Assembly: GCA_016700135.1 (NCBI GenBank)
Contig: CP065004.1
Coordinates: forward strand, 1,320,001 to 1,352,000
DNA from: Candidatus Saccharimonadota bacterium
Lineage (GTDB): Bacteria; Patescibacteriota; Microgenomatia; UBA1406; GWC2-37-13
Direction of reading: 5' to 3'
Length of the DNA: 32,000 nucleotides
The notes below the pieces were generated by a model. It did no database searches. It was not told where the DNA came from and was given only the letters and a program-made list of their open reading frames with translations. Of this stretch, positions 5,670-32,000 are shown in pieces. The position numbers were made by a program, and so were the translations under genes. Each line of letters begins with the position of its first letter. Position 1 is the first letter of the stretch.

Positions 5670-6788
5670 TGAATAAGTTACGAAAGATATGGCACTCATA
5701 GGGAACTAACATCTATGAGTAAATGGGGAGGAGATCAGCTTCGAGTAATTAGGAGTTATGACTGGCAGTACAATAGAGATCTTATGAAAAAGATACGATC
5801 TCTATCAGACTACAATCAGTCAGATGTAGCACAAATCAGAAACGATGTTCTGACATTTGCAGAGAAGTACGGGATACAAGCTGCAGTTGATGCATATGGG
5901 ATATCACGAAGGACATTGTTTCGATGGAGGAAGAGACGGCGAGATTCAGAAGGGCAGTTGGATAGCCTGATACCAGAGACAACCAAGCCAAAGACACCCC
6001 GACGTATGGAGACTCACCCGAAGGTCATATCCTTTATCAAAGAGATTCGAGAACAATACTTTTGTTTGGGAAAGGAGAAGATCAAGCCCTTACTTGATGA
6101 GTATTGCCTACAGGAAGGAATTTCAACTATATCTGAGTCAACCATTGGAAAAGTGATCAAAAGACACAACCTGCAGCGCAAGACCTACCGGATCTATCAC
6201 AATCCAGCAAGTGGCTTTGCAAAACGGAAAGTAAAGTACCGACAGAAGGTCAAGCGGTCTCCCAAGGTGGAAGATACCGGATACATTGAGATTGATACCA
6301 TCACGAAGTTTGTACACGGAATCAAGCTGTATGTCTTCAATGCAGTGGACATCAAACTCAAATTCCAGTTCTCCTACGGATACTCAAAACTCAACAGCCG
6401 AAACGGTGCTGATTTTATGAGAAGACTGGAACTAGTATACCCAATACAAGATGGTATAAAAACCATACAAACAGATAACGGCCTCGAGTATCTGGGAAAC
6501 TTCCATGACTATCTGGAAGAAAACAATATCCCACACCTCTTTATCTACCCCAGATGTCCCAAGATCAATGCCTTTATTGAGCGAGCAAACAGAACACTCC
6601 AGGAAGAATTTATGAACCCCTACATCTATACCAAGTGGACCGGTATCGGATCATTCAATCGTCACCTTATTGAATACCTCGTCTGGTACAATACAAAGCG
6701 AGTTCACAAAAGCCTGAACAATATTTCACCTATGGATTACCTATTATCTATTTTACCTAAAGAGTGCCATATGTATGGAACTCATACA
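5670..6788 (+). mobile_element. IS element copy A (single rve/DDE transposase, IS481-like)
   Basis: The ends were defined by where identity with the inverted copy at 17713-18831 stops. The imperfect terminal inverted repeats are TGAATAAGTT..ATATGGCACTC and TGTATGAGTT..ATATGGCACTC. A 5-bp direct repeat ACCAA flanks it at 5665-5669 and 6789-6793. I checked nucleotide identity only at both ends; internal identity is inferred from the identical 358-aa translations. Confidence 0.9.
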
Positions 6789-9176: not shown

Positions 9177-9629
9177 ATGTTTTTTAACAGGTCTAAATCA
9201 TATAAATCTGAGTTATTTAACGAAAAGACATTTTATGAGAAATTTTTGAAAGACTTGGAGTTAGCTAAGAAGGAAGTGGTAATTGAAAGCCCTTATATTA
9301 CTGCTAACAGAATGGAAACTTTCAACCACGTCTTTCAACGTATTTTAAATAAAAAAATTAAGATACATCTAATAACCCGAGATCCTGTTGAACATGATGA
9401 TGAGTACTTAAAACATCAGGCAGTAAACGAGATACTCAGATGTAAAGAGCTTGGTATGCAACTTACACTTCTTAATGGCTACCATCACCGCAAGTTAGCA
9501 TTTATAGATAGAAAAATTCTTTGGGAAGGAAGTCTAAATATCCTCTCCTACAATAAGAGTTTAGAAATTATGAGAAGGATAGAAGATGAATCTTCAGTAA
9601 GACAAATGCTCAGGTTTATCAAACTTTAA
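9177..9629 (+). CDS. single-HKD phospholipase D-family nuclease (Nuc-like)
   Basis: 150 aa with one HxK(x)4D motif and its downstream GS-N signature: YHHRKLAFIDRKILWEGSLNIL. The size matches the dimeric Nuc-type endonucleases. Confidence 0.8.
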   Translation: MFFNRSKSYKSELFNEKTFYEKFLKDLELAKKEVVIESPYITANRMETFNHVFQRILNKKIKIHLITRDPVEHDDEYLKHQAVNEILRCKELGMQLTLLNGYHHRKLAFIDRKILWEGSLNILSYNKSLEIMRRIEDESSVRQMLRFIKL

Positions 9630-17709: not shown

Positions 17710-18786
17710 TTATGTATGAGTTCCATACATATGGCACTCTTTAGGTAAAATAGATAATAGGTAATCCATAGGTGAAATATTGTTCAGGCTTTTGTGAACT
17801 CGCTTTGTATTGTACCAGACGAGGTATTCAATAAGGTGACGATTGAATGATCCGATACCGGTCCACTTGGTATAGATGTAGGGGTTCATAAATTCTTCCT
17901 GGAGTGTTCTGTTTGCTCGCTCAATAAAGGCATTGATCTTGGGACATCTGGGGTAGATAAAGAGGTGTGGGATATTGTTTTCTTCCAGATAGTCATGGAA
18001 GTTTCCCAGATACTCGAGGCCGTTATCTGTTTGTATGGTTTTTATACCATCTTGTATTGGGTATACTAGTTCCAGTCTTCTCATAAAATCAGCACCGTTT
18101 CGGCTGTTGAGTTTTGAGTATCCGTAGGAGAACTGGAATTTGAGTTTGATGTCCACTGCATTGAAGACATACAGCTTGATTCCGTGTACAAACTTCGTGA
18201 TGGTATCAATCTCAATGTATCCGGTATCTTCCACCTTGGGAGACCGCTTGACCTTCTGTCGGTACTTTACTTTCCGTTTTGCAAAGCCACTTGCTGGATT
18301 GTGATAGATCCGGTAGGTCTTGCGCTGCAGGTTGTGTCTTTTGATCACTTTTCCAATGGTTGACTCAGATATAGTTGAAATTCCTTCCTGTAGGCAATAC
18401 TCATCAAGTAAGGGCTTGATCTTCTCCTTTCCCAAACAAAAGTATTGTTCTCGAATCTCTTTGATAAAGGATATGACCTTCGGGTGAGTCTCCATACGTC
18501 GGGGTGTCTTTGGCTTGGTTGTCTCTGGTATCAGGCTATCCAACTGCCCTTCTGAATCTCGCCGTCTCTTCCTCCATCGAAACAATGTCCTTCGTGATAT
18601 CCCATATGCATCAACTGCAGCTTGTATCCCGTACTTCTCTGCAAATGTCAGAACATCGTTTCTGATTTGTGCTACATCTGACTGATTGTAGTCTGATAGA
18701 GATCGTATCTTTTTCATAAGATCTCTATTGTACTGCCAGTCATAACTCCTAATTACTCGAAGCTGATCTCCTCCCCATTTACTCAT
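17710..18786 (-). CDS. IS transposase (identical to copy A over 358 aa)
   Basis: The translation is identical to that of 5715-6797 except for the last residues. Its stop codon TAA is supplied by the flanking target duplication. Confidence 0.9.
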   Translation of the reverse strand: MSKWGGDQLRVIRSYDWQYNRDLMKKIRSLSDYNQSDVAQIRNDVLTFAEKYGIQAAVDAYGISRRTLFRWRKRRRDSEGQLDSLIPETTKPKTPRRMETHPKVISFIKEIREQYFCLGKEKIKPLLDEYCLQEGISTISESTIGKVIKRHNLQRKTYRIYHNPASGFAKRKVKYRQKVKRSPKVEDTGYIEIDTITKFVHGIKLYVFNAVDIKLKFQFSYGYSKLNSRNGADFMRRLELVYPIQDGIKTIQTDNGLEYLGNFHDYLEENNIPHLFIYPRCPKINAFIERANRTLQEEFMNPYIYTKWTGIGSFNRHLIEYLVWYNTKRVHKSLNNISPMDYLLSILPKECHMYGTHT

Positions 18787-18831
18787 AGATGTTAGTTCCC
18801 TATGAGTGCCATATCTTTCGTAACTTATTCA
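17713..18831 (-). mobile_element. IS element copy B (inverted relative to copy A)
   Basis: It has the same ends as copy A and is flanked by the 5-bp direct repeat CATTA at 17708-17712 and 18832-18836. Confidence 0.9.
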
Positions 18832-18904: not shown

Positions 18905-21004
18905 GTGATAAAGTCAGATGCTCCAATTAAAACAAAAAATGATGATTTACTCGGTAGAACTAAATTTTCCGAGTCACTAGGGAAAGCACTTCTACAATGG
19001 AACAATGAAGAGGGTATAGTTATTGGTCTATATGGGAAATGGGGTTCGGGGAAAAGTTCAGCTATAAATCTTGCCACTGAATACATTGAAACTGAGACTA
19101 AAAAGAAAAAGTACAGGAAAAAAGACAAGCCAATTATCATTCGCTTCAACCCTTGGAACTTTACTGAGCAAAACCAGCTCATTACTATCTTCTTCTCTGA
19201 ATTGGCAAAAGCCATAAATTACTATGATAAAGGCGCTGACGCCAAGAAAGTAGGTCAAAAGCTTATAACTTACAGCAAATTTTTTACTGCCCTTTCCCTA
19301 GTTCCGGGACTTGACCCATACAGCAAAATAGTAGAAAAGGTCTTCAAGCAAGTAGGAAAAACTACGAAAGACTGGGGCGAATTACAGACTAAAAATCTGG
19401 AGCAGTACAAGGTGGAGCTCGACAAAGTAATTAAAAAGCTCGGCAGAAAAATAATCATTATTATTGACGATATTGATCGTCTTAATGAGAAGGAAATAAA
19501 GCAGATTTTTCAACTGGTAAAGCAGAACGCCAACTTCCCTAATACTATATATCTTCTGTCGCTTGACCAGGATAAGGCGTTGGAACAGATAGGAGAAAAA
19601 AATGAGTTCTTAGAGAAAATCATACAGGTGAATTTTCATATTCCGGCGGTAGAAGATTTACGTCTCCGTAAAATTCTATTTGAGGAGCTGGATGCAATCT
19701 TGAAGCCATTTCCTGAGGAATTCTGGGATGTCGAACGATGGGGTACAGTTTATCGCAACGGCTATAAGGACCTCTTTGACTCCGTTCGCAATGTGAAACG
19801 ATACATCAATAGTTTGCAGTTCAATATTAGCATCAATGCAGATGAAATAAATCCATTGGATTTCTTTGTAATTGAAGCTATACGAGTTTTTTTTCCAACA
19901 TTCTACGAAGAAATTGCCAGAAATAAGGAGCTGTTTGTTGGTCTCTTCTTCATGGATAACGAACGAGACCGAGAAGGACGGAAAAAGCAGTTTGAAAAAA
20001 TGTTTGAACTCGTGAAGGAAAAAGACAGACGGATTGTCAAGGACCTTATTTTTGAACTCTTCCCACAAGTTGAAGCAGTATACAGAAATCAAACAGAAAG
20101 AGAGCAGGACAACTGGTTCAAGGAGAAAAGGATTTGCTCTGAGAAAAGATTTGGCAACTACTTCTATCTCACGCTGGCAGAAGGTGAAATTTCACAACAG
20201 GAAATGAATGTTATCACAGAGGCAGCATCTAGTCCTAAAGAGCTTTCTAGGATTTTGGAGGGTTTACTAAAGGATGGGAGAATTCGTAGATGTTTGGAAC
20301 GCTTGCCAGAATTCATAGATGTTATTCCCAACGAATATGTGGAAAATTTTATTTTAGCTTTTTACAATGTCTCAGATAGAATTCCCAGAGAACGGAAAGG
20401 AGACTTAGATTTTGGTGTTGAGATAGAATTAGTACGACTTGGATATCACCTCCTTAAAAAACTTCCAGCGAATGAGCGTTATCAGGCCACAGAAAGAATT
20501 ATCAAACAGTCTGAGAGTATTGAAGCTCCTGTCCACTTCCTATCAATAGAAGAAGATGAACATAAAAAGGAAAAAGAAGATAAACTCCATACACCTGAGG
20601 AGTTACAAAAACTTATTACCTCATCTGTAGCAAAAATCAAAGAATTTGCTAAAAACAGAAAGCTCGATACATCTCCTGGTATTGCATATATCCTCTACCG
20701 GTGGAAACGTTGGGGAGATGAAGCAGAAGTGAAGACATATACTAACAAGCTAATAGAAACGCCCAAAGGTATAGCATCTTTTATCAAAGCTTTCTCGTCT
20801 CATATTATTGGAACTAGGGATAAAAAATTTCGAATCGGATTTAAGGAAATATCAGATTTTATTGATTTGTCTGTTCTCAAGGATTCAATTAATAATCTGA
20901 ATGAAGAAGAGAAAAAATCACTTGCTGAGGCAGAGCTTGAGTATGTGAATAGGTACATGAATGGTGTCGATGATGCTCTTCAAGGAAAAGTAGATGACTT
21001 TTAA
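18905..21004 (+). CDS. KAP-family P-loop NTPase
   Basis: The N-terminus reads DDLLGRTKFSESLGKAL, Walker A is GLYGKWGSGKSS and Walker B is IIIIIDDIDRL, followed by a long helical C-terminal region. The start is GTG. Confidence 0.85.
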   Translation: MIKSDAPIKTKNDDLLGRTKFSESLGKALLQWNNEEGIVIGLYGKWGSGKSSAINLATEYIETETKKKKYRKKDKPIIIRFNPWNFTEQNQLITIFFSELAKAINYYDKGADAKKVGQKLITYSKFFTALSLVPGLDPYSKIVEKVFKQVGKTTKDWGELQTKNLEQYKVELDKVIKKLGRKIIIIIDDIDRLNEKEIKQIFQLVKQNANFPNTIYLLSLDQDKALEQIGEKNEFLEKIIQVNFHIPAVEDLRLRKILFEELDAILKPFPEEFWDVERWGTVYRNGYKDLFDSVRNVKRYINSLQFNISINADEINPLDFFVIEAIRVFFPTFYEEIARNKELFVGLFFMDNERDREGRKKQFEKMFELVKEKDRRIVKDLIFELFPQVEAVYRNQTEREQDNWFKEKRICSEKRFGNYFYLTLAEGEISQQEMNVITEAASSPKELSRILEGLLKDGRIRRCLERLPEFIDVIPNEYVENFILAFYNVSDRIPRERKGDLDFGVEIELVRLGYHLLKKLPANERYQATERIIKQSESIEAPVHFLSIEEDEHKKEKEDKLHTPEELQKLITSSVAKIKEFAKNRKLDTSPGIAYILYRWKRWGDEAEVKTYTNKLIETPKGIASFIKAFSSHIIGTRDKKFRIGFKEISDFIDLSVLKDSINNLNEEEKKSLAEAELEYVNRYMNGVDDALQGKVDDF

Positions 21005-21181: not shown

Positions 21182-24109
21182 ATGAATAAATACCAACAAT
21201 TAATTACAACGCTAAATCGATTATTTCAAACAGATCAGGAAGACTTGGATTTTGGTATTTATCGCATAATGAATCAGAAAAGAGATGAAATAAACTCTTT
21301 TCTCGAGAGTGACTTAAAGAAAACTGTTACAGAAGGCCTTTCTCAACTTGAGGAAACCGATACAGAAGCGCTTGCTCAAGAATTGGAAAAAACTGTCCAT
21401 AGCTTAAAAGAAGCAGGTGTAGATCCAGATACGGCTCCAAAGGTAATAGAGCTTAAAAAACAGATTAACGCTTCAAATACAACAGTAGATGCAGAAAACG
21501 AAATATATTCTCACTTAGTAGACTTCTTTAGCAGATACTATCAAGAAGGTGATTTTATATCACAGCGAAGATATAAAGATGATGTTTATGCTATCCCTTA
21601 CCAAGGGGAAGAAGTAAAACTTTATTGGGCCAATCACGACCAATACTATATTAAGACTACTGAAAACTTCTCGAACTACTCTTTTAAGCTTGAAAATGGC
21701 AATACAGTAACTTTTAGACTAGTTGAGGCCTCTACTGAACAGAATAACAATAAGGCTTCTTCCAATGAGGAACGAAAATTTAAACTTGCTGAAGAAAACT
21801 TTATTAAAGAAATTGAAGATGAGCTCGTTATATATTTTGAGTATCTTCCAGTAGGTAAAAAACCTTCTCAAGATCAGTTAATTGATGAAGCTGTTGGAAA
21901 GTTGCTTGATAAAGTACCAGAAGATTTTAGAGAACTAACAAAGACAGTACCAACAAAAAAGAATCCAGACCGGACTGTGTTAAAGAAAAAGTTGAAGGAA
22001 TATACATCAAAAAATACGTTTGACTACTTTATACATAAAGATTTAAAAGGGTTTTTACAAAGAGAGTTAGATTTCTATATTAAGAACGAACTGCTGAACA
22101 TTGATGATCTAGACACAGTAGTTGAGCATAACAAAGATATTTATGCAAAAATAAAAGTTTTTAAGTCTATTTCCTCTAAAGTGATTGATTTTCTTGCACA
22201 AATCGAAAACTTTCAAAAAAAACTATGGGAAAAGAAAAAGTTTGTTACACAGTCAGATTATTTGATAACTCTAGACAATATAGATGAAAAACATTATGAA
22301 GAGATATCAAAGAATAAGGAACAAATCGAGCAATGGAAAGATTTAGGATTTATTTCTGATAAAGATTCTATCACTAGAAACTACTTGAAAGATCACCCTT
22401 TCCTAACTCTAGATACTCAGTTTTTCCCAGAACTTAAAGACGAGTTGCTGGCAAATATTGAAAACTTAGATGAAAAAACTAATGGTCTATTAATCAATAG
22501 TGAAAACTGGCAGGCTCTAAATCTAATTAAGCAAGTTTACGAAGCTGAAGTAAGTTTCATTTATATTGACCCACCGTATAACACAGATTCTACGCCCATC
22601 ATCTATAAAAACAACTATAGGCATAGCAGTTGGCTGAGCTTAATGAGAGATAGAGTTTATCTTTCAAAACCTCTACTAGGCTCTAATACTGCTATGTGTG
22701 TCACTATCGATGATAAAGAATACCCTCGGCTATTTCAGTTATTAGAACAAACCTTTGGTGAATCCGAAGTGTCCCCAGTTGTTATAGAGTACAACCATAG
22801 AGGAAGATCTAAAAATAACTTTGCTATTACTCACGAGTACGGCTTATGGGTTTTACCTGAAGGTAGAGCCACTATTACAAAACAAAAAGAACTTTCTTCT
22901 GGAGTACAAAGAAATCTAAGAAGAACAGGAACTGATTCAAGAAGAAGAGATTCCTGGAGTATGTTTTACGGTATAGAAGTTAACAAAGCAACTTTAGAAA
23001 TAGTTAATGTAACTGATCCACTACCTTTGGACGAAGAAGTTCCCGCTCATATTAATGAAGAAACAGTAATGGTATGGCCTATTGATGATAGTGGACAGGA
23101 AAGGCGTTGGTACTACGGTAGTGAGCGTGTAAGAAACGAAGCAAAAGAAGGGACTGTATGGGCTAAAGAAATAAATGGCTCTATTCAAATTCACTATAAA
23201 CAGCAACCAAAGCCAAAGAGCCGTAAGTCTGTTTGGACTGGGAAACATCTTGACGCTAGTACTTTTGGATCTGAGTTAATAAATGATTTTTTTACTAATC
23301 GAGTTTTTGACTTCCCTAAAAGTATATATGCTGTAAAACAGAGCATCGAAGCGGCTACTGATAGCAAGGAGGCCTTAATACTAGATTACTTTTCCGGTTC
23401 TGCTACAACAGCACATGCTGTCATAAAACTTAATAGAGAAGATCAGGGAAACAGGAAGTATATCTTAGTTGAAATGGGTAAGTATTTTGATACTGTCACT
23501 AAGCCAAGGGTGCAAAAAGTAATCTACTCAGACAATTGGAAAAATGGAAAACCACAAGACACAGACGGAGTTTCTCAAATTGTTAAATACATGAAGTTAG
23601 AATCTTATGAAGATACCCTAAACAATGTAGTTGTAAATAGAAGTAAAAAACAACAAAGCTTGCTTGATAGTAATAGTGAGCTAAAAGAAGATTACTTTTT
23701 ACACTACATGCTTGATGTAGAAACAAGAGATAGCCAATCTTTGCTTAATATAGATGAACTTTCAGATCCATTTAATTATTCTCTACTTTTAACAACTGAG
23801 AATGAACAAAGGAGACAATCGGTTGATGTGGCAGAAACATTTAATTATCTTATTGGTTTGCATGTAGGTAAAAGGTATAAAAAAGAAAATTGTTTAATCT
23901 ATGAAGGCAAACAGCACCAGTCAAATAAAAAAATAGCTATTATCTGGCGAAATACTAACGAAGTTGGGGATGAAGAGATCCAGAAGCTTGTTGAATCTTT
24001 CAGTAAAGAATGCGACATAATATATGTAAATGGTCAAACAGCTGTTAGTTCAAAAGACTGTGAAGTTCTTACTCTAGAACCTGAATTTAAGAAAAGAATG
24101 TTCAATTAG
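21182..24109 (+). CDS. Type III-like (beta-class) N6-adenine/N4-cytosine DNA methyltransferase with ~430-aa N-terminal extension
   Basis: Motif IV (FIYIDPPYNT, residues 459-468) precedes motif I (ILDYFSGSATTAHAV). The pre-motif LINSENWQALNLIK is typical of Mod proteins. Residues 1-430 are unassigned. Confidence 0.85.
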   Translation: MNKYQQLITTLNRLFQTDQEDLDFGIYRIMNQKRDEINSFLESDLKKTVTEGLSQLEETDTEALAQELEKTVHSLKEAGVDPDTAPKVIELKKQINASNTTVDAENEIYSHLVDFFSRYYQEGDFISQRRYKDDVYAIPYQGEEVKLYWANHDQYYIKTTENFSNYSFKLENGNTVTFRLVEASTEQNNNKASSNEERKFKLAEENFIKEIEDELVIYFEYLPVGKKPSQDQLIDEAVGKLLDKVPEDFRELTKTVPTKKNPDRTVLKKKLKEYTSKNTFDYFIHKDLKGFLQRELDFYIKNELLNIDDLDTVVEHNKDIYAKIKVFKSISSKVIDFLAQIENFQKKLWEKKKFVTQSDYLITLDNIDEKHYEEISKNKEQIEQWKDLGFISDKDSITRNYLKDHPFLTLDTQFFPELKDELLANIENLDEKTNGLLINSENWQALNLIKQVYEAEVSFIYIDPPYNTDSTPIIYKNNYRHSSWLSLMRDRVYLSKPLLGSNTAMCVTIDDKEYPRLFQLLEQTFGESEVSPVVIEYNHRGRSKNNFAITHEYGLWVLPEGRATITKQKELSSGVQRNLRRTGTDSRRRDSWSMFYGIEVNKATLEIVNVTDPLPLDEEVPAHINEETVMVWPIDDSGQERRWYYGSERVRNEAKEGTVWAKEINGSIQIHYKQQPKPKSRKSVWTGKHLDASTFGSELINDFFTNRVFDFPKSIYAVKQSIEAATDSKEALILDYFSGSATTAHAVIKLNREDQGNRKYILVEMGKYFDTVTKPRVQKVIYSDNWKNGKPQDTDGVSQIVKYMKLESYEDTLNNVVVNRSKKQQSLLDSNSELKEDYFLHYMLDVETRDSQSLLNIDELSDPFNYSLLLTTENEQRRQSVDVAETFNYLIGLHVGKRYKKENCLIYEGKQHQSNKKIAIIWRNTNEVGDEEIQKLVESFSKECDIIYVNGQTAVSSKDCEVLTLEPEFKKRMFN

Positions 24110-24111
24110 TT

Positions 24112-27100
24112 ATGGCAATAAAAGATATTAAGCTCTCAGAAAACCTTATTCTCAATCGCTATGTCTTATCACTTTTTAATGAAGAAAAGATTGAAGATCT
24201 AGCACAGTACTTAAAAGACTCGAGACTAGAGACTTATGATGAGAATAACCAATCTCGTTTCTTAAACGAAATCCTTCAAAGATATAACGACTTAACAGAA
24301 AACTTTGTTAGAGACTTAAGGAAGTACGACCACAATATCTATCTGCACACGAAAAAGATAAATGGAAAGAGAACCAAAGATATTAGTTGGAAGTATTTTC
24401 AGTACCTAGGGCTACTTTTTACAGAAATTATTTTAGATAAATACTTCTCAAATAAAAAGCAACTAATAGCTGAATTAAACGAATTTAGTCAAAAGCTCTA
24501 TCGACAAGATGAGACTAAATATGAAACATCGCCTTTTATAGAATCTGATTTTAATAAATTGGTTTTCTGGCAAGCAACTGGATCGGGAAAAACATTAATA
24601 CTTCATGTTAATTATTTACAATTCAGGCATTATTTAGAACAGTATAAAAAAGACAAAGAATATAATAAATTTATTCTTCTCACTCCTAACGAGGGACTAT
24701 CTTTACAGCACTTAAGAGAGTTGCAGGAATCTAATATTCCTGCTGAGATTTTTAATAAAGATTCTCAAGGAGGTTTGTTCTCAACTTCTAAAGATAAAGT
24801 TGAAATAATTGATATTCACAAACTTAAAAACAAGAGTGGAGATAAAACTGTTGCAGTCGATTCTTTTGGACAAAACAATATAGTATTTGTCGACGAAGGA
24901 CATAGAGGTTCTTCTGGTGAAGAGTGGCTCAAAATGAGAGATAAACTAACAGTGGAAGGGTTTTCTTTCGAATACTCTGCGACATTTGAACAAGCGATAA
25001 GCCCAAAGGATAAAAGGCTTTTCAATCTATATAGTCAAACTATTCTATTAGATTATTCCTATAAGCACTTTTATTTAGACGGATATGGTAAAGAATATCG
25101 AATATTGAATATTAGTAATAACAACTGGAGTGAAAGTAGATTTAGGTACCTTTTTGCTAGCCTACTCTCATACTACCAGCAACTAAAAATTTACGAGTCT
25201 AACAAGGAACAGCTAAAGCCATTTAATATAGAAAAACCTTTAATGATCTTTGTTGGAGGGAGCGTCAATGCTGTTCGGCAGGAGAATAAGGAAAATGTTT
25301 CTGATGTAATAGACATACTGCTTTATCTTAAAAATGTCCTCCAAGAAAAGTCTGCCAGTATTAAAGCAATAGAATCAATACTTAAAGAACAGACAGGTTT
25401 AGTCGATGATTCTGGTAAAGATGTTTTTACAGGTCAATTTAAATACCTGCAAAAATCGAATCTAAGTGCAGAAGAGATATATAGAGACTTACTTAAAAAG
25501 ATACTTCACAATAATAACCCTTCTGCACAATTTCAACTAGTTAACTTGAAATCAGTGGAGGGAGAAATTGGTGTAAGACTAGGATCAAATTCTCCTTACT
25601 TTGCCGTTATCAATGTGGGAGATGATAGAAAACTGCTTAAACTTTGTGAAGAAAATGGATTACAAACAGAGGAACAAGAATTTGCGGATTCTCTTTTTAA
25701 TACTATAAATACAAATAATTCAACAATTAATCTTCTTGTAGGATCAAAGAAATTTACAGAAGGATGGAATAGTTGGAGAGTAAGCTGCATAGGGCTGATG
25801 AATTTAGGAAGAACTGAAGGGTCAGAGATTATTCAACTGTTTGGTAGAGGTGTAAGGCTAAAAGGGTATGATTGGTCATTGAAGCGATCAGCAAGTTTAA
25901 AAAAGTCAGAACTAGATGTTGAAAAACCCGATTATCTAAGTGTTCTTGAGACGCTCAATATATTTGGTGTTCGTGCTGATTACATGTATGAATTTAAAGA
26001 ATATTTAGAGCAAGAGGGTATTCCAACTAAAGATCAGATTGTTGAAATTAGAATGCCAACTATAAAAAACTTTGGGTCGCTTAAGCATTTAAAGATGATT
26101 ACTTCTACTGCTCCACCTTTTAATGATCCCGTGATTCTAAGTGAACCTACTAAGCCTAGTCGGAAAATTGAACTTAATCTTTATGCAAAGCTTACTTCAA
26201 TATCTAGTCTAGATTCCACCTCTGCTTCAGTACAGAAAAATGAAATATCTCTAGATGAGCGCCTACTGGACTTTTTTGATTTTGATCAAATATTTTTTGA
26301 AGTTACGGGCTATAAAAATCAACAAGGTTGGAAAAATCTTGTTTTTTCCAAAGAACTATTAAAAGAATTTCTCAAGAATAGTGACTGGTACGAAATTTAT
26401 GCCCCACAAAATTTATTTAATTTATCGATGTTCAATGAGATTGAAACAATTCAGGATGAGATTATTATTCCCTTACTTAAAAAGTACATTAAGTCCGTAT
26501 ACAACTATTATGAATCGAAATACGAAACTAAGTACAGAGAATACTCTAGCTTGTCTGATGCTGATCCAAATATAATTGAAGAGTACTTGATTGAGATTGA
26601 TAAATCTGAAGAAGCTCTAATAAAAGATTTACAGGTATATGCAAAAGAAATCAAAAAACTTTCGGATGACTATGATAAATATGAAGATAAATTAAAGCTT
26701 CTTACTTTTAGCCGTCACTTATATCAACCACTGGTTTTTTCTGATCATAAATCCAGGCTTATTAAAGTTACACCTGTATCACTGAATCCTAGTGAACTAC
26801 AGTTTGTTGAAGAGTTTAGAGACTTTTATAGAGATAACAAAGAGCTATTTGATTCCACAGATGTTTACCTGTTACGAAATCAGTCTAAAGGTACTGGAAT
26901 TAGCTTTTTTGAAGCTAACAACTTTTATCCAGACTTTATTATGTGGCTAGTTAACGGTGAAAAGCAAAAAATTGTATTTATAGATCCTAAAGGAATAAGA
27001 GAAGTTGGAGGTATGTCAGATCCAAAGATTCAATTTTCTAATTCAATAAAAGGTATTGAAAAGGAACTTGCTAACGAAAAAATTGCACTTAATTCTTTCA

Positions 27101-27225
27101 TCCTCACTCCTACTTATCACGATAATACTTGGTGGGGAAACGATTATACTGAAGATCAATTTTTAGAAAACAATGTCATCTTTATGAAAGGTGAGTATTT
27201 CCAAAGGTTATTTTCTAAACTATAG
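24112..27225 (+). CDS. Type III restriction Res-like SF2 helicase with C-terminal PD-(D/E)xK nuclease motif
   Basis: The helicase motifs are FWQATGSGKTL, VFVDEGHRGSS, YSATF, KKFTEGWN and LFGRGVRL. The C-terminal motif is YPDFIMW...IVFIDPKG. The gene starts 2 nt after the methyltransferase stop. Confidence 0.85.
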   Translation: MAIKDIKLSENLILNRYVLSLFNEEKIEDLAQYLKDSRLETYDENNQSRFLNEILQRYNDLTENFVRDLRKYDHNIYLHTKKINGKRTKDISWKYFQYLGLLFTEIILDKYFSNKKQLIAELNEFSQKLYRQDETKYETSPFIESDFNKLVFWQATGSGKTLILHVNYLQFRHYLEQYKKDKEYNKFILLTPNEGLSLQHLRELQESNIPAEIFNKDSQGGLFSTSKDKVEIIDIHKLKNKSGDKTVAVDSFGQNNIVFVDEGHRGSSGEEWLKMRDKLTVEGFSFEYSATFEQAISPKDKRLFNLYSQTILLDYSYKHFYLDGYGKEYRILNISNNNWSESRFRYLFASLLSYYQQLKIYESNKEQLKPFNIEKPLMIFVGGSVNAVRQENKENVSDVIDILLYLKNVLQEKSASIKAIESILKEQTGLVDDSGKDVFTGQFKYLQKSNLSAEEIYRDLLKKILHNNNPSAQFQLVNLKSVEGEIGVRLGSNSPYFAVINVGDDRKLLKLCEENGLQTEEQEFADSLFNTINTNNSTINLLVGSKKFTEGWNSWRVSCIGLMNLGRTEGSEIIQLFGRGVRLKGYDWSLKRSASLKKSELDVEKPDYLSVLETLNIFGVRADYMYEFKEYLEQEGIPTKDQIVEIRMPTIKNFGSLKHLKMITSTAPPFNDPVILSEPTKPSRKIELNLYAKLTSISSLDSTSASVQKNEISLDERLLDFFDFDQIFFEVTGYKNQQGWKNLVFSKELLKEFLKNSDWYEIYAPQNLFNLSMFNEIETIQDEIIIPLLKKYIKSVYNYYESKYETKYREYSSLSDADPNIIEEYLIEIDKSEEALIKDLQVYAKEIKKLSDDYDKYEDKLKLLTFSRHLYQPLVFSDHKSRLIKVTPVSLNPSELQFVEEFRDFYRDNKELFDSTDVYLLRNQSKGTGISFFEANNFYPDFIMWLVNGEKQKIVFIDPKGIREVGGMSDPKIQFSNSIKGIEKELANEKIALNSFILTPTYHDNTWWGNDYTEDQFLENNVIFMKGEYFQRLFSKL

Positions 27226-27250
27226 ATGCCAAAGATTTAATATAAAGCTT

Positions 27251-29056
27251 ATGTACTTAAAAAGAATCTCTATAAAAAATTTTAGAGGCATTGATAGTCT
27301 CACGAACTTAGAGATTTCAAACTTAAATACCTTTGTTGGGAAAAACGATTCCGGGAAGTCTACAATATTACACGCACTAAATTGTTTCTTTGATATAAAA
27401 AAATTTAATACAAAAGATGTATTTAAGGGAAAACCAGGAAATGAATTAAGTAGCATTGAAATATCTTTCTTGCCTTCTATAGAAATTGATGATTTGGCTT
27501 TAGATAGTAATTCTTTACTTACAATTAGAAAAGAGTTTGAACTTGTAAATAACAAAATAAAATGCACCGAATACTATAGTTGTAATGACTTTACGGATGC
27601 AGCATATCAAAATTTGTGGAATAAGAAGGAAAGTGAATTAAATACAATAGTCTCAGATCTAGGAGAAACTCCAAACCGTTCAGGCAGGGGTAAAAAGAAT
27701 ATTCTAAGAATAGAGCAAATAAAATCTGTTCTTTCTGATAAATCTAGGACTGATACCAAGCATGAGCTTGGCGATTTTCTCAAGAATATTGAAAAGACAT
27801 ATGACTTATCTCTACCAAGATTTTCTATCTTTGATGCTGAGCAGGATTTAAGCATTGAAGCTACAAACTTTCAGTCTCAATTTCGACCCATAATAGCCTC
27901 ATTTTTCGATTCAGTTCAAGAAAAAACTTCTGAAATAGAATTGGGACTGGAAAAAGATCTTGCAACAGAGTTTGAGGAAATTAGAAAATACATGTCAAAA
28001 AATGTTTCAGGATTAAAAGGTTTAACACCTTCTACAGAGTTCGACTGGGTGAAATCTGTTAAAAAATTTGACCTCGATTTGGAATTTGAAGACCAAGAAT
28101 TTCAAGTATCAATATCGCATAAAGGGACAGGCTTTAAGCGTTTATTAATGGTTGCCTACTTTGAGTATTTGGCTAATAAACAAAGCATAGCAAATCAGTT
28201 ATTCGCGATCGAAGAACCCGAGACCTACCTACATCCATCTGCTCAAGAAGATCTTTTAAGTTCTATCATTAAGATTTCAGAAAAAACCCAATTTTTTATA
28301 ACAACACATTCGCCAGTGTTCGCAGGTGCTACTGATGGAGAGAATTCTATATTAGTCACCAAAGATAATAAAGGTCTTTCACACTATTCTAAAGGTGGTG
28401 AGGATATTATTGAGCAAATAATTCATGAACTTGGGATAAGACCCGATTTTAACCTGCTAAAGGGAACAAAGTATCTTATTTTTGTGGAGGGGAAAGACGA
28501 TATACATTTCCTAAGCTCATATGCTAATACAGTTTTAGGTAAAAGTCTTGAAGAAGATAGAATTCTATGTGTTATTGGAGGTGGAGGTTCTCTTAAAAAC
28601 TATGCTGATCTGGATCTATTTAGAAAACTGAAAGGTAACAACCTATACTCAGTATTAGTAGACGGGGATGATAAAAAAAATGGTAAGGAAAAATGGGCAG
28701 AAAGCATCAAATCAAAGTGTGAATGTGATGGCGCAGAATTCGTAAAACTTTCAAAGCGCGAAATAGAGAATTATTGTCATCCAAGCAGAATAAAGAAATG
28801 CTTAATTTCAATTATCAAGAAACGTGAAGGTGAAAACACACAGAATCCGCATATTTCCGCGATTGAAACTTGCAATTTAAACATAAAAGATGACACTGAT
28901 GTAGAAAAATATCTCAAAGAGAAAAAGCTATGTAATGAATTTAAATCTGGTGTAAATATTAGTGTTTTTAAGGAAATGACAAAAGAAGAATGGGAAGAGT
29001 GTGATAATAACAATGAGGTGAAAAACTTTATCGAAGGTATTTACAGTAGAATTTAA
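27251..29056 (+). CDS. OLD-family nuclease (ABC-type ATPase plus Toprim domain)
   Basis: The N-terminus reads MYLKRISIKNFRGI. The ATPase motifs are GKNDSGKSTILHAL, FAIEEPETYLHP and TTHSP. The Toprim motifs are LIFVEGKDDIHFL and VLVDGDD. I chose the ATG at 27251 rather than the ORF-track start at 27191, which overlaps the Res gene. Confidence 0.8.
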   Translation: MYLKRISIKNFRGIDSLTNLEISNLNTFVGKNDSGKSTILHALNCFFDIKKFNTKDVFKGKPGNELSSIEISFLPSIEIDDLALDSNSLLTIRKEFELVNNKIKCTEYYSCNDFTDAAYQNLWNKKESELNTIVSDLGETPNRSGRGKKNILRIEQIKSVLSDKSRTDTKHELGDFLKNIEKTYDLSLPRFSIFDAEQDLSIEATNFQSQFRPIIASFFDSVQEKTSEIELGLEKDLATEFEEIRKYMSKNVSGLKGLTPSTEFDWVKSVKKFDLDLEFEDQEFQVSISHKGTGFKRLLMVAYFEYLANKQSIANQLFAIEEPETYLHPSAQEDLLSSIIKISEKTQFFITTHSPVFAGATDGENSILVTKDNKGLSHYSKGGEDIIEQIIHELGIRPDFNLLKGTKYLIFVEGKDDIHFLSSYANTVLGKSLEEDRILCVIGGGGSLKNYADLDLFRKLKGNNLYSVLVDGDDKKNGKEKWAESIKSKCECDGAEFVKLSKREIENYCHPSRIKKCLISIIKKREGENTQNPHISAIETCNLNIKDDTDVEKYLKEKKLCNEFKSGVNISVFKEMTKEEWEECDNNNEVKNFIEGIYSRI

Positions 29057-29075
29057 AAACCACACATATGTTCAA

Positions 29076-30167
29076 ATGTTTCAATATTTAGAGGAAAAAC
29101 AATCATATATAAACCGCTATGACCTTCAAACAATAAAGGAATGCTTAAACCGGTATTTGGATATTCGTGATGGGATGGAAAAACATAGAGATGAGTTACT
29201 GGCTAAAGAGCCTAAGGTTGACTTTGATAAAGAAGTACACAAGATATGTAGTTATACAGTAAATGCCATTAAGATTGAACGTTTTCGAAGAAAAAAAGTA
29301 ACAATTGATGAATGGATAGAAGCAGACACAAGAAGACAAGATAAAATTGAAAACACACCTCCGCCTGAAAGTATATTCTGCGATAAGTGTAATTCTCCTA
29401 CAAAAGTTATTCATAAAACTCTTCACAATGCATATGAGGAAGAACCAAAAGTATTGTTTCTGTTTGAATGTATTAAGTGCAATAAACGTCAGGCATTTTA
29501 TGAAGATGGCTCACTTTGGGATTATGAAAAACCAAAATGTCCCGAGTGCAAAGCAGTATTAGAAAATAATTATGAAGACAAAGATGAAATCTTAACTGTC
29601 ACTACCTTCTGCTCTAAATGTTCATATAAAGAAGTAGATGTTACTGATTTTAAAAAGGATCGAATTAAAAGACACAAAGAAGAGGAAAAAGATAAGAAAC
29701 TTCTTGAAGAATATCGCACAGAGTTTTGTTATACAGAAGAGGAAGGAGCAAGGGCAGTTGCCAGCTTTGATGGACTAATAGCGTTAGCTAAAGAATTGAA
29801 AGAGCAGGAGAAGAAAGAGAACGATCCTGCTTATAAAAAAGCAAAAAAGCTGAAAAAACTTAAGCTAAATCAGCTAAAAGAATTAGTATCTAAAACTATT
29901 CAAAAAGAAGGGTATGCAGACTTGCAGTTTGATAAACCAGAAATGGACAGGTTTGTAATAGTCGCTTTTTCAGCAAGTGATACTAAAGATGACAGATCAG
30001 AGTATGACAGTGCTAATACTTTGAAGAAATCTCTTGTATCTGCATTAAAAGAAACAAATTGGAGACTGATGAGTGAAGGCATAAGCTATAGAATTGGCAT
30101 TGTTTCCGGCACATTTAAAGCCGATGAAAGTGAAGACGACCTAATGAAACTTTTTCATCAGGAGTAA
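29076..30167 (+). CDS. double zinc-ribbon / coiled-coil protein of unknown function
   Basis: 363 aa with two CxxC...CxxC pairs (CDKC...CIKC and CPEC...CSKC). These are followed by a Lys/Glu-rich helix and an unassigned ~90-aa C-terminal domain. It is the last gene of the Mod-Res-OLD operon. Confidence 0.55.
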   Translation: MFQYLEEKQSYINRYDLQTIKECLNRYLDIRDGMEKHRDELLAKEPKVDFDKEVHKICSYTVNAIKIERFRRKKVTIDEWIEADTRRQDKIENTPPPESIFCDKCNSPTKVIHKTLHNAYEEEPKVLFLFECIKCNKRQAFYEDGSLWDYEKPKCPECKAVLENNYEDKDEILTVTTFCSKCSYKEVDVTDFKKDRIKRHKEEEKDKKLLEEYRTEFCYTEEEGARAVASFDGLIALAKELKEQEKKENDPAYKKAKKLKKLKLNQLKELVSKTIQKEGYADLQFDKPEMDRFVIVAFSASDTKDDRSEYDSANTLKKSLVSALKETNWRLMSEGISYRIGIVSGTFKADESEDDLMKLFHQE

Positions 30168-31124: not shown

Positions 31125-31135
31125 AGTGTATTCAC

Positions 31136-31153
31136 GTACTAGTATAATAGTAC
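31136..31153. promoter_or_regulatory. trp-operator-like palindrome overlapping a -10-like element
   Basis: The site is GTACTAGTATAATAGTAC, and the arms extend to ACGTACT/AGTACGT (31134-31155). It lies 10-30 nt upstream of the TrpR-family gene start. Confidence 0.5.
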
Positions 31154-31187
31154 GTAGTATACCATACGTTTCCACCTTTGCAATACA

Positions 31188-31304
31188 AGGGGCCTTGCCC
31201 CTCATTTTGCAAGGGCTGCGCAAGTCACTCCTACGTCGTGACCCTTGCAAAATTTCACCCCGCTTTTTGAGATCCAGGTATGGGAAGCAGGCGGGCTGCT
31301 TCCC
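31188..31304. repeat. GC-rich block of three hairpins, including a 12-bp perfect inverted repeat
   Basis: Hairpin 1 is aggggc/gcccct (31188-31202). Hairpin 2 is attttgcaaggg (31204-31215) with cccttgcaaaat (31242-31253), and has an inner gtcac/gtgac stem. Hairpin 3 is gggaagcag (31282-31290) with ctgcttccc (31296-31304). Confidence 0.6.
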
Positions 31305-31344
31305 AACCAAAAATTATAAAATTACAAGCAGTCGCCGAGAAATT

Positions 31345-32000
31345 ATGAAACTTTCAGCGAAAGCACAACAAAGTCTTGATCGAGTAGTAGAAAAGTTTAA
31401 AACAGGAGATATATCTGCTATCTCAAAAATTGCAAGAATTCAACTTGATCCCAATGCTCCAGCTATAAAATGGAGCCTATCAAATAAAGTACTAAGTATC
31501 ATGCAAGCTGGAGAGCTTGACTGTAGAGGGTTTAGACAATGGGAAAATGTCGGAAGAAGAATAAAAAAAGGCAGCTCTGCCATATATATACTAAGGCCTG
31601 TCATAGTCAAAAATACAGTTGAAGACGAAAATGAGAAAGAAGAAATGCAGTGTATTGGGTTTGCTGCTGTTCCTGTATTCCCTGCTTCGTGCACAGAAGG
31701 AGAAAAAGACTTATTAGGATATCAGCCAAAAGAACTGCCAGAATTGGTCAAAGTCGCCGAGAAATTTAATATTTCTGTTCAATACTTACCCACTTTACCC
31801 GACAGGCTAGGAGATTGCAGTAAAGACGGGAATCAAATCAGATTAGGGACACATAGCCCCTCAGTATTCTTTCATGAGCTAGCACATGCCATTCATGCCC
31901 GAATTGAAGGAGAGCTAAAAGGAGGACAGACTGCCAACCAGGAAACAATAGCAGAATTTACAGCAGCTGTATTAATGGACGTGTATGGCTACCCGGATTA
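31345..32000 (+). CDS. ArdC-like protein (ssDNA-binding N-domain plus zincin HExxH metalloprotease domain), 3' end outside the window
   Basis: I translated it by hand from the ATG at 31345. The frame stays open for 218 codons to the window edge. It has CRGFRQWENVGRRIKKGSSAIYILRP (the ArdC_N/DUF1738-like W-x-x-x-G-x-x-(V/I)-x-K-G pattern) and FFHELAHAIH (HExxH). It is absent from the ORF track because no stop codon is reached. Confidence 0.65.
   Translation, partial: MKLSAKAQQSLDRVVEKFKTGDISAISKIARIQLDPNAPAIKWSLSNKVLSIMQAGELDCRGFRQWENVGRRIKKGSSAIYILRPVIVKNTVEDENEKEEMQCIGFAAVPVFPASCTEGEKDLLGYQPKELPELVKVAEKFNISVQYLPTLPDRLGDCSKDGNQIRLGTHSPSVFFHELAHAIHARIEGELKGGQTANQETIAEFTAAVLMDVYGYPD

Follow-up and report, generated by a model that had tools for sequence, protein, structure and literature searches.

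The question raised by this locus is whether four closely packed genes form one defence system or an assembly of separable ones. The genes occupy positions 21182 to 30167 of a 32,000-nucleotide (nt) stretch of contig CP065004.1, referred to here as the window, and a preliminary description had read them as a single hard-wired system in which a DNA methylase, a translocating helicase-nuclease, an OLD-family nuclease and a zinc-ribbon protein are combined. Our analyses lead us, with moderate confidence, to another division of the locus: a defence island composed of a restriction-modification (R-M) pair with an attached OLD nuclease (genes 1 to 3), in which the OLD nuclease is probably a second layer to restriction, and of an independent island gene (gene 4). 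The best explanation of the data is that this island sits on a mobile part of a Candidatus Roizmanbacteria genome, and that it runs from a KAP/PifA-like NTPase through the Type III-like R-M pair and the OLD nuclease to gene 4.

All four genes are on the plus strand. Gene 1 (21182..24109; 975 amino acids, aa) encodes a Type III-like Mod subunit, a predicted beta-class N6/N4 DNA methyltransferase with an N-terminal extension of about 400 aa, and gene 2 (24112..27225; 1037 aa) a Type III-like Res subunit, in which an SF2 helicase is followed by a C-terminal PD-(D/E)xK nuclease. Gene 3 (27251..29056) encodes a single-chain OLD-family nuclease with an ABC ATPase and a Toprim domain. Its longest open reading frame (ORF) begins with a GTG at 27191, and translation from the ATG at 27251 gives a protein of 601 aa with a typical OLD N-terminus. 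Gene 4 (29076..30167; 363 aa) encodes a double zinc-ribbon, coiled-coil protein that belongs to a large uncharacterised family, and its end overlaps a convergent Asp/Glu racemase gene by 10 nt. The G+C content of the four-gene block is 0.31-0.35, compared with 0.37-0.52 in the first 9 kb of the window. The gene 3 product is 100% identical to a recorded protein of Candidatus Roizmanbacteria (Patescibacteria, candidate phyla radiation).

Read directly, the junctions are TAG 24109/ATG 24112, TAG 27225/ATG 27251 and TAA 29056/ATG 29076, and the gaps of 2, 25 and 19 nt between successive genes are as originally described. A consensus scan of the three gaps found neither a terminator-like hairpin, in agreement with the earlier reading, nor a promoter-like site on the plus strand; in the region as a whole, the counts of such sites do not exceed those in shuffled sequence. 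The scan and the short gaps are consistent with one transcription unit without proving or refuting an operon. The single transcription unit put forward in the preliminary description is compatible with the scan, and the four genes are probably co-transcribed.

Genes 1 and 2 show the sequence hallmarks of Type III Mod and Res subunits, and here the assignments made from the translations alone hold. In the gene 1 protein the DPPY motif (IYIDPPYNT) precedes FSGSAT, so that motif IV comes before motif I, as in beta-class enzymes. The protein matches Pfam N6_N4_Mtase (5.8e-22) and PADLOC MTase_III (PDLC03646, 3.5e-237), and its top PDB matches are Type III Mods (6k0w, 7dsu, 4zcf), EcoP15I Mod among them. 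The gene 2 protein matches Pfam ResIII (9.3e-12), with matches to SWI2_SNF2 and DEAD as well, and PADLOC REase_III (PDLC03654, 5.8e-191). Its predicted nuclease motif at the C-terminus, YPDF...FIDPKG, is kept as YPDF...F(I/V)(D/E)P(K/H)G in six homologues, which come from bacteria and a haloarchaeon. Given that a phmmer search at the sequence level found no match to gene 2 at E<=0.01 among all PDB chains, including EcoP15I Res, gene 2 can be placed by its sequence in a divergent Res lineage.

The pair resembles the Type III systems EcoP15I and EcoP1I in having mod upstream of res with a spacing of 2 nt, in a beta-class Mod whose top PDB matches are Type III Mods, in a Res with a ResIII core and a PD-(D/E)xK motif, and in the very strong matches of both subunits to REBASE-derived PADLOC Type III models. 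It differs in that both subunits are larger (Mod has 975 aa against about 640 aa, with the N-terminal extension), in that Res has no detectable sequence similarity to EcoP15I Res, and in that an OLD gene is attached downstream. Homologues of the long Mod/Res pair were also encountered on IncF plasmids of E. coli/Klebsiella (L114) and in Priestia (L113), at 36-39% identity. In two of the four plasmids examined a gene for an SNF2-related or ATP-dependent helicase precedes the Mod/Res homologues, and this arrangement may represent a three-gene variant of the Type III-like family found in the window.

The protein encoded by gene 3 matches Pfam AAA_15 (6e-41) and PADLOC AriA (7.7e-40), the latter over the full length of the model and the ATPase half of the protein. 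The PADLOC Old model (6e-33) covers residues 1-460, more than AriA does, and the fused AriAB model scores 7e-20. The top PDB match is the Class 1 OLD of Thermus scotoductus (TsOLD; 6P74, 5.4e-12). Walker A (GKNDSGKST), Walker B (IEEPE), the signature (KGTGF) and the H-loop (TTHSP) are invariant in 16 homologues, as are the Toprim residues E413-G and D471-G-D473 (DxD). The Pfam OLD-like_TOPRIM model matches gene 3 weakly (0.0029; 18.6 bits, with a Pfam cutoff of 23.2 bits), and PF20469 is present in several close homologues. These features identify gene 3 as a complete single-chain OLD nuclease with predicted activity, and they agree with the ABC ATPase head and Toprim tail recognised at the outset. 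Membership of MADS, retron or Septu systems was considered and rejected, the NCBIfam scores being far below the cutoffs. No reverse-transcriptase ORF was found beside gene 3 and no Rfam hit in the window, so the hallmarks of OLD class 3 are absent from this locus.

The evidence that carries our reading comes from the neighbourhoods of the gene 3 subfamily. We compared the window with 12 further contexts encoding proteins 58-74% identical to gene 3, with ORFs in the collected loci called by a simple script under genetic code 11. In 9 of these 13 contexts, the window included, the OLD gene directly follows an R-M operon of the same orientation, and the spacing between the two ranges from an 11-nt overlap to a 25-nt gap; the relatives of gene 3 placed in this way are 62-74% identical to it. 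The R-M partners are of five different kinds, three of them Type III lineages and two of them Type II. Because the arrangement recurs in so many contexts and with five different R-M partners, we consider that R-M with an attached OLD gene is, on the evidence of gene order, a recurrent cassette. The recurrence of gene 3 homologues behind R-M operons, which the preliminary description had proposed to look for, is borne out.

The best represented form of this cassette was found in five loci (L096, L098, L106, L107 and L109), where an N6_N4 Mod of 560-617 aa is followed by a ResIII Res of 737 aa and then by the OLD gene, with a Res/OLD gap of 2 nt in four of the five and of 12 nt in L096. Among these triads identity is 81-95% for Res, 71-94% for OLD and 54-76% for Mod, and the hosts include Spirochaetota and Komeilibacteria. 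Such values would fit a mobile R-M cassette that crosses phyla, with Mod diverging. BLAST finds no similarity between the Res of the window and the 737-aa form, but the OLD attached to each is of the same subfamily, at 70% identity. A further Type III pair in L110 (Res of 795 aa, 31% identical to the 737-aa form) is followed by a DUF2130 gene and then by OLD. The Type II partners are a C5 methyltransferase and an HpaII-type endonuclease, followed by Vsr and an OLD gene that overlaps by 11 nt (L099), and a HinfI-type endonuclease with two methyltransferases, followed by OLD after 9 nt (L116).

The DUF2130 protein (about 420 aa) was seen with a Type III/OLD cassette in two loci, after the OLD gene in L107 (8755-10014) and between Res and OLD in L110 (5733-7004), and it is also the upstream neighbour of one gene 4 homologue. 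Genes of other OLD lineages are found behind R-M systems too. In L011 an orthologue of the window Res (76% identical) is followed by a Gabija-like OLD and a UvrD-like gene, and in L094 a Type I system precedes an OLD that is 27% identical to gene 3. On plasmids, OLD genes with a remote relationship to gene 3 (25-29% identity) either stand alone or simply have R-M genes in the vicinity, and they are of little help. No relatives of gene 3 were found in IMG/VR, and a metagenome scan for gene 3 contexts yielded only 10 loci, mostly short.

Published OLD classes comprise standalone genes (class 1), Gabija (2), retrons (3), PARIS (4) and the archaeal Cran1 (5), and no R-M-attached class is among them (PMC10568477, PMC12392090, PMC12796447). 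Gene 3 resembles Class 1, represented by P2 Old, TsOLD and the Vibrio cholerae OLD: TsOLD is its top PDB match, and it has no UvrD-like, reverse-transcriptase or separate Toprim partner. Class 1 is defined by standalone genes in variable neighbourhoods (PMC10568477, PMC12796447), whereas the gene 3 subfamily lies 3' of an R-M operon in most of its contexts and so is not standalone. With PARIS (AriA/AriB) it shares an ABC-ATPase-linked nuclease tied to restriction, as well as the AriA match; PARIS, however, is a separate two-gene system outside R-M operons, and its effector cleaves tRNA. PrrC, from the EcoprrI Type I locus, is a precedent for an effector gene embedded in an R-M operon, but it is an anticodon nuclease without a Toprim domain. 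Gabija (GajA/GajB) is comparable in that GajA is of the same OLD family and a tightly linked second gene lies downstream; in the window, however, that second gene (gene 4) does not encode a UvrD-like helicase and has no Pfam or PADLOC match, and GajA models match gene 3 weakly. The one related account in the literature that we searched is anecdotal: a Gabija-like pair was noted beside the PluTI Type IIF system in 2010 (PMC2875022). The absence of a name for the arrangement, remarked upon in the preliminary description, is in line with the literature that we searched, where no named Type III-plus-OLD system was found; this search was incomplete and a prior description is possible.

What an OLD nuclease might do behind an R-M operon can be considered in the light of other systems. 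In the window, Mod would methylate host sites, and the Mod-Res complex, driven by ATP, would locate unmethylated DNA that enters the cell and cleave it. The OLD nuclease would most likely provide a second layer that is coupled to restriction: its ATPase head would sense that restriction has been blocked or overwhelmed, and the Toprim domain would then nick or degrade DNA. In a variant that we favour less, OLD would degrade the ends that restriction produces. Given that the five R-M partners are unrelated, OLD is more likely to respond to a cue that all five share, for instance an anti-restriction factor or DNA ends, than to contact one particular protein.

A coupled second layer is favoured because of three precedents. 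P2 Old, the archetype of the family, depends on the RecBCD of its host, and recB and recC mutants are killed by P2 phage that carries old (PMC12392090, PMC12796447). PARIS, whose AriA is the PADLOC model that best matches the ATPase half of gene 3, is triggered by the anti-restriction protein Ocr, and PrrC, encoded within a Type I locus, by inhibition of the Type I enzyme (PMC12707154, where the guardian concept is described). Toxin genes linked to R-M systems have been proposed to be a general theme (PMC3506569).

The principal alternative is that the R-M pair, the OLD gene and gene 4 are three self-sufficient units packed head to tail by chance, in which case the repeated adjacency would reflect co-transfer or preferred insertion at the 3' end of R-M operons rather than coupling. 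Class 1 OLDs can defend alone, as do the Vibrio cholerae OLD (PMC12392090) and P2 Old. Members of the gene 3 subfamily also occur away from any co-directional R-M operon: no R-M genes lie near those of L111 and L117, and in L108 there is only a divergent Eco57I-type methyltransferase beside the gene. Plasmid homologues of genes 1 and 2 (36-42% identity) are Mod/Res pairs without OLD, and short gaps are common in compact candidate phyla radiation genomes, as illustrated by gene 4 homologues, which follow their upstream neighbours closely whatever these are. Other points also weigh against our reading. R-M systems are common in defence islands, so that some adjacency is expected by chance. The sample of 13 contexts is small, R-M adjacency is unclear in one of them (L097), and four of the five triads with the 737-aa Res are nearly one cassette, which leaves about five independent associations. 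The guardian mechanism, moreover, is an analogy with P2 Old, PARIS and PrrC.

Chance packing nevertheless has to account for one OLD subfamily occurring with five different R-M partners, for an OLD gene that in R-M contexts is always downstream, on the same strand and within the narrow range of spacings given above, and for the triad with the 737-aa Res that remains intact across phyla. On balance we regard it as unlikely, and prefer the reading in which genes 1 to 3 are a cassette.

Gene 4 presents a different picture. It has no match in Pfam, PADLOC, NCBIfam or PHROGs, and yet its family is large and comes mostly from genomes of the candidate phyla radiation: a word-indexed search gave 143 full-length homologues, and an exhaustive profile search 814 representative clusters. 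In species-representative genomes gene 4 has 270 relatives, and the best 80 of these 270 are nearly all from Patescibacteria. The family alignment contains four invariant CxxC pairs and a conserved C-terminal motif, TNWRLMSEG...YRLG. A confident AlphaFold2 model, with a predicted local distance difference test score (pLDDT) of 90.6, has a helical region at the N-terminus, a pair of zinc ribbons, a coiled coil and an alpha/beta domain at the C-terminus; the two zinc ribbons and coiled coil perceived at first sight are thus present in the model. A Foldseek comparison of the model with PDB and BFVD gave nothing at E<=1e-3, and the sole likeness is a weak resemblance of the C-terminal domain to S24e/S6-like alpha/beta folds. 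Longer variants of the family carry an extra third zinc ribbon and a helix-turn-helix-like segment, and forms of about 697 aa also have a P-loop kinase-like domain.

To place gene 4 in its genomic context, ORFs were called in 93 loci encoding a homologue and searched with genes 1 to 3. Close Mod/Res homologues were present in one of the 93 loci, L011, at a distance of five and six genes, and weak OLD-like matches in a few. In 72 of the 93 loci the gene next upstream has the same orientation as the homologue, with a median gap of 5 nt, but its family changes almost every time. Neighbouring genes encode GajB, SF1 helicases, SMODS, SAVED, Mrr, Schlafen, KAP NTPase, a Type I R subunit, trypsin, HamA, SduA, AbiV-type HEPN proteins and members of PADLOC candidate systems, and the systems represented span Gabija, Hachiman, Shedu, parts of CBASS and Type I R-M. 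In L035 the homologue stands between a complete Type I system and a Hachiman system, and in some loci, L007 among them, it stands alone, with a divergent or distant neighbour. Pairs of gene 4 homologues that are 90-94% identical have unrelated genes on both flanks. When the window is compared with L094, a DNA identity of about 93% is confined to the gene 4 ORF, and homology stops where the ORF begins and ends.

We judge from these neighbourhoods that gene 4 is an independent island gene rather than part of the R-M/OLD unit, because its neighbours are hypervariable and it is tied neither to Mod/Res nor to OLD. The recurrence beside Mod/Res, which the preliminary description had proposed to look for with gene 4 as well, is therefore not seen in the 93 loci. 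This bears directly on the idea of one obligate machine made up of methylase, translocating nuclease, OLD nuclease and zinc-ribbon adaptor. Tight spacing and the lack of terminator-like sites in the gaps speak for such a machine, as does L094, where a KAP NTPase, R-M genes, an OLD gene and a gene 4 homologue occur in this order, although the proteins are mostly different. The unrelated neighbours of near-identical gene 4 homologues, the rarity of Mod/Res near them, and the finding that the gene 3 homologues in the 12 other contexts never precede a gene 4 homologue all argue against it, and no second copy of the four-gene arrangement was found among the loci examined. An obligate four-gene machine is largely refuted by these data and we consider it highly improbable. 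Of the hard-wired system originally proposed, genes 1 to 3 remain as a recurrent R-M/OLD cassette, and gene 4 falls away.

The same neighbourhoods speak to whether genes 3 and 4 could be a two-gene module of an OLD nuclease and a partner, similar to GajA/GajB, that landed behind an R-M operon. The closest relative of gene 4 (P0001 in L094, 91% identical) follows an OLD-family gene after 2 nt, which weighs against full independence of gene 4 and hints at an OLD/gene 4 link, and OLD-containing systems lie a few genes upstream of gene 4 homologues in L011, L056, L062 and L076. The L094 adjacency is suggestive only, because gene 4 neighbours turn over so often. The OLDs of the window and L094 are 27% identical, in contrast to the near-identity of their gene 4 DNA, which stops at the ORF ends; no gene 3 homologue examined elsewhere precedes a gene 4 homologue, and most gene 4 homologues are without an OLD neighbour. 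Such a module is improbable in our estimation, and an independent gene 4 is retained as the preferred reading.

As far as its distribution can tell, gene 4 behaves as an autonomous and very common gene of defence islands and prophage hotspots of the candidate phyla radiation. About 36 of 94 gene 4 loci adjoin genes for a large and a small terminase, a ParB-methyltransferase, a CI/LexA-like repressor and a serine recombinase. In the typical phage-type layout TerL, TerS and the ParB-methyltransferase are on one strand, and the opposite strand carries the repressor, followed by variable defence genes and the gene 4 homologue. In L004, L022, L057, L069, L070, L081 and about 30 other loci, the gene 4 homologue marks the variable defence-cargo region of putative Patescibacteria prophages. 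The gene 4 product probably binds nucleic acids and may serve as a regulator, or else as a single-gene factor in defence or counter-defence. Two other readings of gene 4 were rejected. As an insertion sequence (IS), gene 4 would have no room for terminal repeats, given that it lies 19 nt after gene 3 and overlaps the racemase gene; as a fixed boundary gene of a hotspot, it would not have flanks that both vary among homologues 90-94% identical.

Upstream of the four genes the window contains further island and mobile-element genes. A KAP-family P-loop NTPase gene (18905..21004, plus strand; PifA-like, 699 aa) lies 177 nt upstream of gene 1 on the same strand and is another gene of defence-island type, with matches to Pfam KAP_NTPase (6.8e-44) and, over the full length, to PADLOC PifA (7.2e-87). 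In L094, too, the block of R-M genes, OLD and gene 4 homologue is flanked by a KAP NTPase. The left bound of the island is an IS copy with an rve-family transposase (17713..18831, minus strand), which stops 73 nt short of the KAP NTPase gene, the first gene of the island. It is an inverted copy of 5670-6788, with 1119-nt arms that are 100% complementary and 10.9 kb apart, and the transposase ORFs of both copies (358-360 aa) match Pfam rve_3 and HTH_23. The two copies bracket type IV secretion-like genes, including TrbL/VirB6, a VirB4/TraG-like ATPase and an M23 peptidase.

On the other side of the island, an ORF at 31126-32000 that runs off the end of the window has weak matches to Pfam ArdC-N (0.0064) and to the anti-restriction family phrog_7245 (1.4e-6); an anti-restriction gene beside a restriction island would fit a conjugative element. 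A 150-aa protein encoded at 9177-9629, 20 kb from gene 4, is without Pfam-like or PHROG annotation. It belongs to a cluster (cluster 17) that in eight other loci lies two to three genes downstream of gene 4 homologues, in the order gene 4, helix-turn-helix, another gene, cluster 17. Between 7001 and 9000 the G+C content rises to 0.50-0.52, compared with 0.31-0.44 elsewhere, over a 445-aa ORF whose only match, a weak one, is to CarboxypepD_reg; no rRNA, tRNA or Rfam hit accounts for this rise.

From the perspective of bacterial immunity, it is of interest that OLDs outside Gabija, retrons and PARIS are treated in the reviews consulted as lone genes, with triggers that are mostly unknown. The repeated attachment of one OLD subfamily to five different restriction systems leads to the concrete and testable idea that OLD may serve as a back-up to restriction in the manner of PARIS and PrrC, and anti-restriction proteins would be a place to look for the trigger. 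The gene 4 family is large, confidently folded and completely unannotated, and it marks defence hotspots of the candidate phyla radiation, whose immune systems and phages are barely explored. We put forward tentatively, as a possibility that is open to considerable doubt, the joint proposal that the gene 3 subfamily is a new, R-M-attached class of OLD and that the gene 4 family is a new single-gene factor with a new fold. If this were true, R-M-attached OLDs would guard restriction by sensing anti-restriction or restriction failure whatever the type of R-M system, and the gene 4 family would be a defence, counter-defence or regulatory factor typical of prophage and island hotspots of the candidate phyla radiation.

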